Of a stretch of DNA of 64,000 nt, positions 26,394 to 33,269 are shown one piece after another (positions within the stretch are counted from its first letter, which is position 1; every line of letters begins with the position of its first letter). The stretch lies in NCBI RefSeq assembly GCF_003334405.1, contig NZ_QOWM01000001.1, one strand, 5' to 3'. The stretch is from Escherichia coli. Lineage in GTDB: Bacteria > Pseudomonadota > Gammaproteobacteria > Enterobacterales > Enterobacteriaceae. The notes under the pieces are model-generated. The model made no database searches. It was not told where the DNA came from and worked only from the letters and a program-made list of their open reading frames with translations. The translations under genes and the position numbers were made by a program.

Positions 26394-28006
<1,613 letters not shown>

Positions 28007-31897: not shown

Positions 31898-32416
31898 TTA
31901 GCTCTTTTCAGGACATTTGGTATTTGGCTGAATACGCGTTTCGTTATACGTCGTGGTAATAACAACGGCTAAACCTGTCGTAAACTGGCACTCTTTACCC
32001 ACCTGGGTAGAGGTATACACTTTGGTGCCTTCCTTATAGGTTAAAGAAACACCTTCCACTAAGGTTTTATCATTCACCATAGAACCCGCTGCCGCGCCTA
32101 CAGCTCCGCCGCCAACTGCACCTGCCGTCGTTCCGGAATTGCTGCCAGACCCGACGTTGTGGCCGATAACACCGCCAGCGACTGCGCCAATAAGCGCGCC
32201 GAAGGCTTGTGCGTTCCGTTTATTTTGGGAGTTGTCTACGGCAACTTTTGCGGGAAGAATGGAAATAATATTAACGGTTTTAGTTTCTTGTTTGGTATTC
32301 AGTTGATCGGTTTGATAAACATCGGCAGCATGATCGTCAGCATTTGACTGGCATCCTGCCAGAGTGAATGACGCTAACATTGCCACAGGCAGAAGACATT
32401 TTTTAAATTTCATCAC
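31898..32416 (-). CDS. yfgH: YfgH (glycine-zipper outer membrane lipoprotein)
   Basis: 172-aa ORF; lipobox LAGC; Gly-rich zipper GALIGAVAGGVIGHNVGSG. Confidence 0.9.
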   Translation of the reverse strand: MMKFKKCLLPVAMLASFTLAGCQSNADDHAADVYQTDQLNTKQETKTVNIISILPAKVAVDNSQNKRNAQAFGALIGAVAGGVIGHNVGSGSNSGTTAGAVGGGAVGAAAGSMVNDKTLVEGVSLTYKEGTKVYTSTQVGKECQFTTGLAVVITTTYNETRIQPNTKCPEKS

Positions 32417-32726
32417 TATTCCTTGTTATACACATTACGAAAAATAAGACATTTAAGATCATCAAAAGAGGAAAGTAAATGTATTGCGTATAAAGGGATA
32501 GATTAAATTTATTAAAATTCACGCAGGGAATAATTTATAAAAATATATCATTACAACATATATATTAATTTTATATTTATTTCGCAGCCAAACAGGATAA
32601 ACATCAGTCAGGATAAAGACGTAAAATTTAAGATGAAAGAATATCTGCCGCTTTGATAATCCCAAACAGCAAAAGCATCCGACAGCGAAGTGCCGTTATG
32701 TTCTGTGAAAGTGGAGAAGGTAACCG

Positions 32727-32918
32727 CTAACGTTGTACCGGTGATTCGACGGAGAGTGTGGATTGCTGAGCTTCTTTTTTGCTCTGATGGTGCTGCCAGG
32801 CACCGACGGACGAGTAGATAAAACGGCCAAAGAAGAAGATAAAGCTGATGAGCAGTACGATACGGGTCATGCGACTGTTAAATCGGTGTCGTTTTCGCAT
32901 ACTGGTTGCCTGACTCAC
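32727..32918 (-). CDS. yfgG: YfgG (small membrane protein)
   Basis: 63-aa ORF MSQATSMRKRHRFNSRMTRIVLLISFIFFFGRFIY. Confidence 0.8.
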   Translation of the reverse strand: MSQATSMRKRHRFNSRMTRIVLLISFIFFFGRFIYSSVGAWQHHQSKKEAQQSTLSVESPVQR

Positions 32919-33128
32919 AAAAGGTTCCTTGAAGTATGTCCCACGCTGTGGACGGTACTTACATTAAGGCACAACAGGACAAAATGGTCAATTCTTCGTT
33001 ATGTAAAAAAGCGTCAGTGGATACATATTTTAATGTTATGGAAGTTAATTTAATTATTTACAATGATGATGTAATAATGATGAATTAACATGATAAACGT
33101 AATAATTCATTAATCAGGGTTATTTTGT

Positions 33129-33142
33129 TTGATATATATCAA
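33129..33142 (+). promoter_or_regulatory. FNR-type binding site (TTGAT-N4-ATCAA) upstream of pdeF
   Basis: Perfect TTGATatatATCAA; TAGAAT -10 candidate at 33164-33169 puts the site near -41.5 (class II geometry). Confidence 0.6.
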
Positions 33143-33269
33143 TTGGTACTTTCATATGACACTTAGAATCAATGCTCTCTATAGTGATGAATAATCATCA
33201 TTCGAAGTCAGGTGGGATGCCTGTCTGAATACACCTCCTTCAGGATGTGGGGGATTCTGCTGAGCATCT

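Follow-up and report, generated by a model that had tools for sequence, protein, structure and literature searches.

The pdeF (yfgF) promoter of Escherichia coli: a probable class II FNR-dependent promoter with a footprint kept across enterobacterial genera

The yfgG-pdeF locus

The DNA analyzed here, referred to as the window, is a stretch of 64,000 nucleotides (64 kb) from E. coli. Near its middle, the gene for a c-di-GMP phosphodiesterase, pdeF (also called yfgF), diverges from yfgG across an AT-rich spacer. The components of the locus are as follows:

32727..32918, minus strand: yfgG (b2504), the divergent neighbour, from the MG1655 annotation and translation; its start codon ends at 32918
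32919..33269, no strand: AT-rich divergent yfgG-pdeF spacer with an H-NS-associated flag; 351 bp, GC 0.23-0.33
32991-32963, minus strand: predicted yfgG promoter TTGACC-17-CTTAAT, from the sequence and PMC3946193, with a σ70 ChIP-seq summit
33270..35513, plus strand: pdeF (yfgF, b2503), c-di-GMP phosphodiesterase and the regulated gene; open reading frame (ORF) of 747 amino acids (aa), ATG at 33270

The region from 32881 to 33300, which includes the first 31 nt of pdeF, matches E. coli K-12 MG1655 at 100% identity in reverse orientation (position in U00096.3 = 2662208 minus the window position), and pdeF as annotated in MG1655 is 2244 nt, equal in length to the gene in the window. A first-pass annotation of the window had described 32919-33269 as an AT-rich divergent spacer; these limits match the MG1655 annotation exactly, and the low GC content is confirmed, with dips to 0.23-0.30 across 33000-33224. 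The yfgF/yfgG spacer carries an "HNS" flag in the genomic survey of Shimada 2014 (PMC3946193). A second very AT-rich stretch (GC 0.23-0.33) is present between yfgG and yfgH (window 32400-32700).

In other E. coli, the NCBI pipeline calls within the spacer a 50-aa "hypothetical protein" ORF (WP_000017552/WP_000017553) at ~32936-33088 on the plus strand; this ORF has no annotation in MG1655 and is probably spurious. A scan of 32700-33500 against Rfam returns just one chance snoRNA match (E = 0.65) and no known RNA element in the pdeF leader. A Fur box within the ATGAT/AATAAT-rich stretches was considered and rejected, as these stretches, judged by eye, show no alignment to the 19-bp Fur consensus.

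An FNR box in place of a -35 element

Upstream of pdeF, the spacer contains a palindromic FNR box followed by a recognizable -10 element. The features of the promoter are:

33129..33142, no strand (palindromic): FNR box TTGATATATATCAA, centre at 33135.5, read from the sequence
33140..33147, plus strand: position of the -35 element, with the hexamer absent; shared in part with the 3' half of the FNR box
33164..33169, plus strand: -10 hexamer TAGAAT of the FNR-dependent pdeF promoter, from the sequence and named as the -10 in PMC3718329
33176..33177, plus strand: inferred pdeF transcription start, from geometry and the published -41.5 (33177 if the box is at -41.5)
33177..33269, plus strand: inferred pdeF 5' leader of ~93 nt, as bounded by the inferred start and the pdeF ATG (33270)

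The box matches TTGAT-N4-ATCAA at all 10 specified positions (33129-33142), bearing out the exact half-sites claimed in the first-pass annotation, and it is the only perfect match to TTGATNNNNATCAA on either strand of the 64-kb window. In 100 dinucleotide-preserving shuffles of the window, the mean number of perfect matches is 0.08, and 8 of the 100 contain at least one. When one mismatch is allowed, 3 sites are seen in the window versus 2.37 expected; since this count is close to expectation, only the perfect site stands out. Another predicted FNR site in the window, TTGATCTCGCTCAC, is located in the guaB/xseA spacer (27977-27990, minus strand), where it lies under an FNR ChIP-seq peak and overlaps a CRP site according to Myers 2013 (PMC3688515). 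A further predicted site, TTGACTTTAGTCAA, in the upp/purM spacer (41241-41254, minus strand), has an FNR ChIP-seq peak above it, and the same study does not report an fnr-dependent expression change there.

The TAGAAT hexamer at 33164-33169, also picked out in the first-pass annotation and present on rereading of the sequence, agrees with TATAAT at five of six positions and is separated from the end of the FNR box by 21 nt. Candidate -35 hexamers at a spacing of 16-18 nt to TAGAAT share only 0-1 of six positions with TTGACA. A missing -35 element, a recognizable -10 element, and a box lying over the place of the -35 together give, as far as DNA sequence can indicate, the arrangement expected of a class II promoter that depends on an activator.

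A start site 6-8 nt past the hexamer, at the inferred position of 33176-33177, would place the centre of the box at -40.5 or -41.5. The distance between box and hexamer is 1 nt below that of a canonical -41.5 site with a hexamer at -12 to -7, and the observed spacing fits either a box at -40.5 or, if transcription begins 8 nt past the hexamer, a box at -41.5. Thus, the initial placement of the box at ~41 bp upstream of a predicted start agrees both with the geometry from TAGAAT (-40.5/-41.5) and with PMC3718329, which states -41.5. The start at 33176-33177 would follow from this secondary citation together with the geometry; supplements that list start sites (Cappable-seq coordinates and ROSE entries) contain no match for yfgF. 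Just 3' of the inferred start is a perfect inverted repeat, TGATGA-N4-TCATCA (window 33185-33200). It was rejected as an operator: it is kept in the Escherichia loci alone, and ~1 such repeat is expected by chance (a rough estimate for a 6-nt inverted repeat in a 351-bp AT-rich spacer, with a range of spacings allowed).

Published evidence for FNR at yfgF

The pdeF promoter is already known: its description dates from 2010, with confirmation from FNR ChIP-seq in 2013. A passage of PMC3718329 (2013), restating Lacey, Partridge and Green 2010 (Microbiology 156:2873) from the same laboratory, describes the yfgF promoter as Class II FNR-dependent, with an FNR box at -41.5 and TAGAAT as the -10; citing Lacey 2010, it also states that FNR activates yfgF and that expression is maximal anaerobically. 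RegulonDB curates FNR as an activator of yfgF under anaerobiosis (PMC4207228), and elsewhere in the literature yfgF is said to be "expressed only under anaerobic conditions". As far as the K-12 yfgF promoter is described in RegulonDB and in this restatement of Lacey 2010, it is the same locus, box, TAGAAT -10 and -41.5 assignment, with identical sequence.

Occupancy in vivo comes from the work of Myers et al. 2013 (PMC3688515). Their Table S6 lists the exact 14-mer as a predicted FNR site with a PatSer score of 16.08, among the highest there, at coordinate 2627088 of U00096.2 (2629066 of U00096.3, window 33142). An FNR ChIP-seq peak at yfgF/yfgG, found by MOSAiCS, NCIS and CisGenome and also by ChIP-chip, coincides with this 14-mer (Table S5), so the comparison with FNR ChIP-seq peaks proposed along with the first-pass annotation finds a published peak covering the exact site. 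The same table gives the yfgF/yfgG peak as absent from an earlier FNR ChIP-chip study. In Table S9, yfgF is given as the estimated target and has one known transcription start site (TSS), for which Lacey 2010 is cited. Among FNR-activated promoters with a known start in this study, 19 of 23 have their site at -41.5 ± 4, and sites at -40.5 are found at yfiD, focA-pflB, pykA and nikA. The supplements of a genome-scale study of redox regulation (Federowicz 2014) contain no entry for yfgF, yfgG or b2503.

Anaerobic induction of pdeF, the expectation drawn from the sequence at the outset, is reported by PMC3718329 and RegulonDB. However, in anaerobic glucose minimal medium yfgF expression shows no FNR-dependent change between the wild type and an fnr mutant (PMC3688515, Table S9). 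The induction of pdeF therefore depends on conditions. The abstract of the Lacey 2010 study reportedly has yfgF expression peaking at 28 C and in stationary phase, a growth-phase and temperature pattern that would fit a promoter whose output is gated.

Data on nucleoid proteins are also available for this site. The FNR ChIP-chip peak average at yfgF/yfgG is significantly higher in an hns/stpA mutant (1.68) than in the wild type (0.35; PMC3688515, Table S7), and anaerobic induction of yfgF is listed by Myers 2013 for the hns/stpA mutant only. At the yfgF FNR site itself, Table S6 gives no NAP overlap. In addition, a 2025 study of an avian pathogenic strain reports that BasR binds a yfgF promoter fragment and that a basSR mutant is 2.3-fold derepressed.

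Conservation of the promoter in Enterobacteriaceae

A scan with the PdeF protein, taking one genome per species, provides 14 orthologous loci with upstream DNA: four from Escherichia (92-93% aa identity), one from Enterobacter asburiae (63%), two from Phytobacter (62%), six from Kluyvera (58-61%), and one from another member of the Enterobacteriaceae (57%). The scan returned no promoters from Salmonella, Citrobacter or Klebsiella. The divergent yfgG neighbour is kept at all 14 loci, and each contains exactly one FNR box with 0-1 mismatch to TTGAT-N4-ATCAA, located 140-180 nt upstream of the matched start; such a box would be expected by chance in 400 nt of like composition at 2-4% per locus. 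In every one of the 14, a -10 element follows exactly 21 nt after the box (TAGAAT in Escherichia, TAAAAT in the others). When seven representative loci are anchored on the box, the invariant positions are distributed as follows:

Flank of 30 nt before the box: 1 of 30 invariant
FNR half-sites: 8 of 10 invariant
Box centre: 0 of 4 invariant
21-nt spacer: 1 of 21 invariant
-10 hexamer: 5 of 6 invariant
Flank of 25 nt after the hexamer: 0 of 25 invariant

Since the half-sites, the -10 element and the distance between them are kept while the flanks have diverged, selection has acted to preserve these two elements at a fixed distance, but no other part of the sequence. This pattern, at the level of sequence comparison, is what a class II FNR promoter would predict, and it provides independent support for the FNR-pdeF connection as ancestral in Enterobacteriaceae. 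The cross-genus footprint is new here, the remainder having already been published; relative to the K-12 yfgF description, the analysis adds only this footprint, together with the connection drawn to ChIP-seq and H-NS results. The yfgF gene of Salmonella Enteritidis (STM2503) has the same layout, an FNR box at -41.5 plus a -10, but differs by one change in each element: its box is TTGAC--ATCAA and its -10 is TACAAT (PMC3718329). The TTGAC variant of the box is also present in Kluyvera loci.

Other readings of the spacer

Transcription of pdeF could in principle arise mainly from a σ70 promoter that does not depend on FNR and overlaps the FNR-dependent one. Such a promoter would consist of ATGACA (33156-33161) and TATAGT (33180-33185), separated by 18 nt, with a start at ~33192, leaving FNR with an incidental or modulatory role. 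A consensus scan of 32850-33350 returns this as its sole hexamer pair, with 10 of 12 matches; the pair is also the one given for yfgF in a genomic SELEX list of "constitutive" RpoD promoters (PMC3946193), and yfgF expression that is unchanged without fnr in glucose minimal medium is compatible with FNR-independent basal transcription. However, the one promoter-like site from the scan is fewer than the 2.3 ± 1.4 found in shuffles, so that the ATGACA/TATAGT match has no statistical weight, and the SELEX assignment is a sequence prediction inside a peak that also spans the strong yfgG promoter. A start at ~33192 would place the FNR box at about -57, which fits neither class I nor class II. Neither ATGACA nor TATAGT is kept outside Escherichia, in contrast to the FNR box and the TAnAAT that follows it at 21 nt, and the part of PMC3718329 that deals with yfgF reports its dependence on FNR. 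For these reasons we consider this origin for most pdeF transcription improbable, although ATGACA-18-TATAGT is a possible basal promoter.

The position of the box in a shared spacer also allows that its target is the divergent yfgG, or both genes, and not pdeF in particular. The FNR ChIP-seq peak is assigned to the yfgF/yfgG spacer as a whole, yfgG is 2.2-fold higher anaerobically in the wild type (ratio of 0.45 in Table S12; PMC3688515), and a strong anaerobic σ70 ChIP-seq summit lies on the yfgG side, at ~32951 in the window. Against this, the predicted yfgG promoter puts the centre of the box ~180 nt upstream of the yfgG start, outside the known FNR positions (-41.5, -61.5 etc.), and the fixed, conserved spacing runs to a -10 on the pdeF strand. 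Furthermore, yfgG is not among the operons whose expression differs in the fnr mutant according to Table S8, and yfgF is the estimated target named by Myers 2013 (PMC3688515). An action of the box aimed at yfgG is thus very unlikely. The chance that the palindrome has no FNR role at all, being either a random match or the site of another protein such as CRP, is slighter still and close to negligible. AT-rich DNA does favour words of the TTGAT/ATCAA type, and a perfect site turns up in the 8 shuffled windows mentioned above. Nevertheless, four genera share the half-sites despite variation in the box centre and flanks, and FNR occupies the site in vivo (PMC3688515). The half-sites, moreover, are TTGAT and lack the GTGA core of the CRP type. 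The consensus for CRP is TGTGA-N6-TCACA, and it is this GTGA core that separates CRP sites from FNR half-sites (TTGAT). A CRP-dependent promoter was accordingly rejected: the sequence here does not match the CRP consensus, having TTGAT/ATCAA with a 4-nt centre and a T that replaces the G of the GTGA core.

A class II promoter with conditional output

The reading that best accounts for these observations is that the site is the class II FNR-dependent promoter of pdeF, to which we assign a probability of about 0.92. Class II activation of pdeF by FNR had been put forward from the sequence at the start, and it gains support from PMC3718329, from the Myers 2013 peak, and from the fixed 21-nt spacing at 14 of 14 loci. 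In the proposed mechanism, dimeric [4Fe-4S]-FNR would bind the palindrome at 33129-33142 when oxygen is lacking. The bound palindrome, centred ~41 bp upstream of the start, would then take the place of the missing -35 hexamer. The AT-rich, H-NS-associated spacer would act as a further gate on output, as would other inputs, which reportedly include growth phase and temperature and, in an avian pathogenic strain, BasR. The exact start, the contacts made by polymerase and the size of the induction are taken here from inference or from the literature.

The FNR-dependent pdeF promoter resembles canonical class II promoters, such as narG, dmsA, nirB and nrfA at -41.5 or yfiD, focA-pflB, pykA and nikA at -40.5. 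In both cases a single box lies over the -35 position (for pdeF it would fall within -41.5 ± 4 of the predicted start), the -35 element is poor or absent, and the -10 is recognizable. Unlike these promoters, pdeF combines a perfect consensus with no detectable response to deletion of fnr in glucose minimal medium (PMC3688515). It is also similar to H-NS-masked FNR targets such as hlyE (Category 7 of Myers 2013, PMC3688515): both are AT-rich, both show an FNR ChIP signal that increases in hns/stpA, and for both anaerobic induction is listed for that mutant only. However, pdeF differs from promoters of the hlyE type in that its site is already bound in the wild type (the peak is designated "WT and hns/stpA") and has no NAP overlap (PMC3688515), which argues that masking is partial. 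Thus, FNR appears to be necessary but conditionally limited at pdeF, and the limitation is probably exerted by H-NS. These comparisons suggest that FNR is the activator, with nucleoid proteins and other inputs acting as gates on output.

A stronger form of this idea is that the perfect, FNR-occupied class II site is nearly silent in exponential anaerobic growth, with H-NS/StpA, and possibly BasR or another repressor, holding the spacer. The pdeF promoter would then need two keys, anoxia as one and, as the other, slow growth, low temperature or envelope signals that lift the nucleoid silencing; ATGACA-18-TATAGT might provide a basal supply. We regard this two-key arrangement as tentative and, on balance, rather doubtful. 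If true, it would partly reconcile Lacey 2010 with Myers 2013, and the style of regulation would be a known one, as at hlyE.

In enteric bacteria, the FNR-dependent pdeF promoter connects oxygen sensing by FNR with the turnover of c-di-GMP and hence with motility, surface properties and peroxide tolerance. The link between FNR and c-di-GMP is established in the literature, and the value of the present analysis is as confirmation: an experimentally validated regulatory site is recoverable from sequence alone.

Variation of the promoter among E. coli strains

A 71-nt core promoter is present at 95% identity or better in 5404 of 5426 complete E. coli genomes, and 1575 of those 5404 carry the K-12 core at 99% identity or better. 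Between the box and the -10, position 33146 of the window is T in K-12 (TTGGTACTTT) and A in the other Escherichia loci and in the other E. coli strains inspected.

Insertion sequences are also found in this spacer; IS1 is present in the yfgG-pdeF spacer in all ten of the top matches listed among E. coli genomes. In E. coli ES6 (NZ_CM184335.1, 1010-1830), IS1 has entered the stretch separating the FNR box from the -10, at the equivalent of window 33145-33153, and is flanked by a 9-bp target duplication, GGAACTTTC. The whole element parts the box from TAGAAT, and this insertion is a natural disruption of the class II pdeF promoter. In E. coli SCZE5 (700-1470), the one examined of the ten, IS1 is located at the predicted yfgG -35, equivalent to window ~32985-32998; this insertion lies ~140 nt away from the FNR box on its upstream side, and the pdeF promoter is intact.
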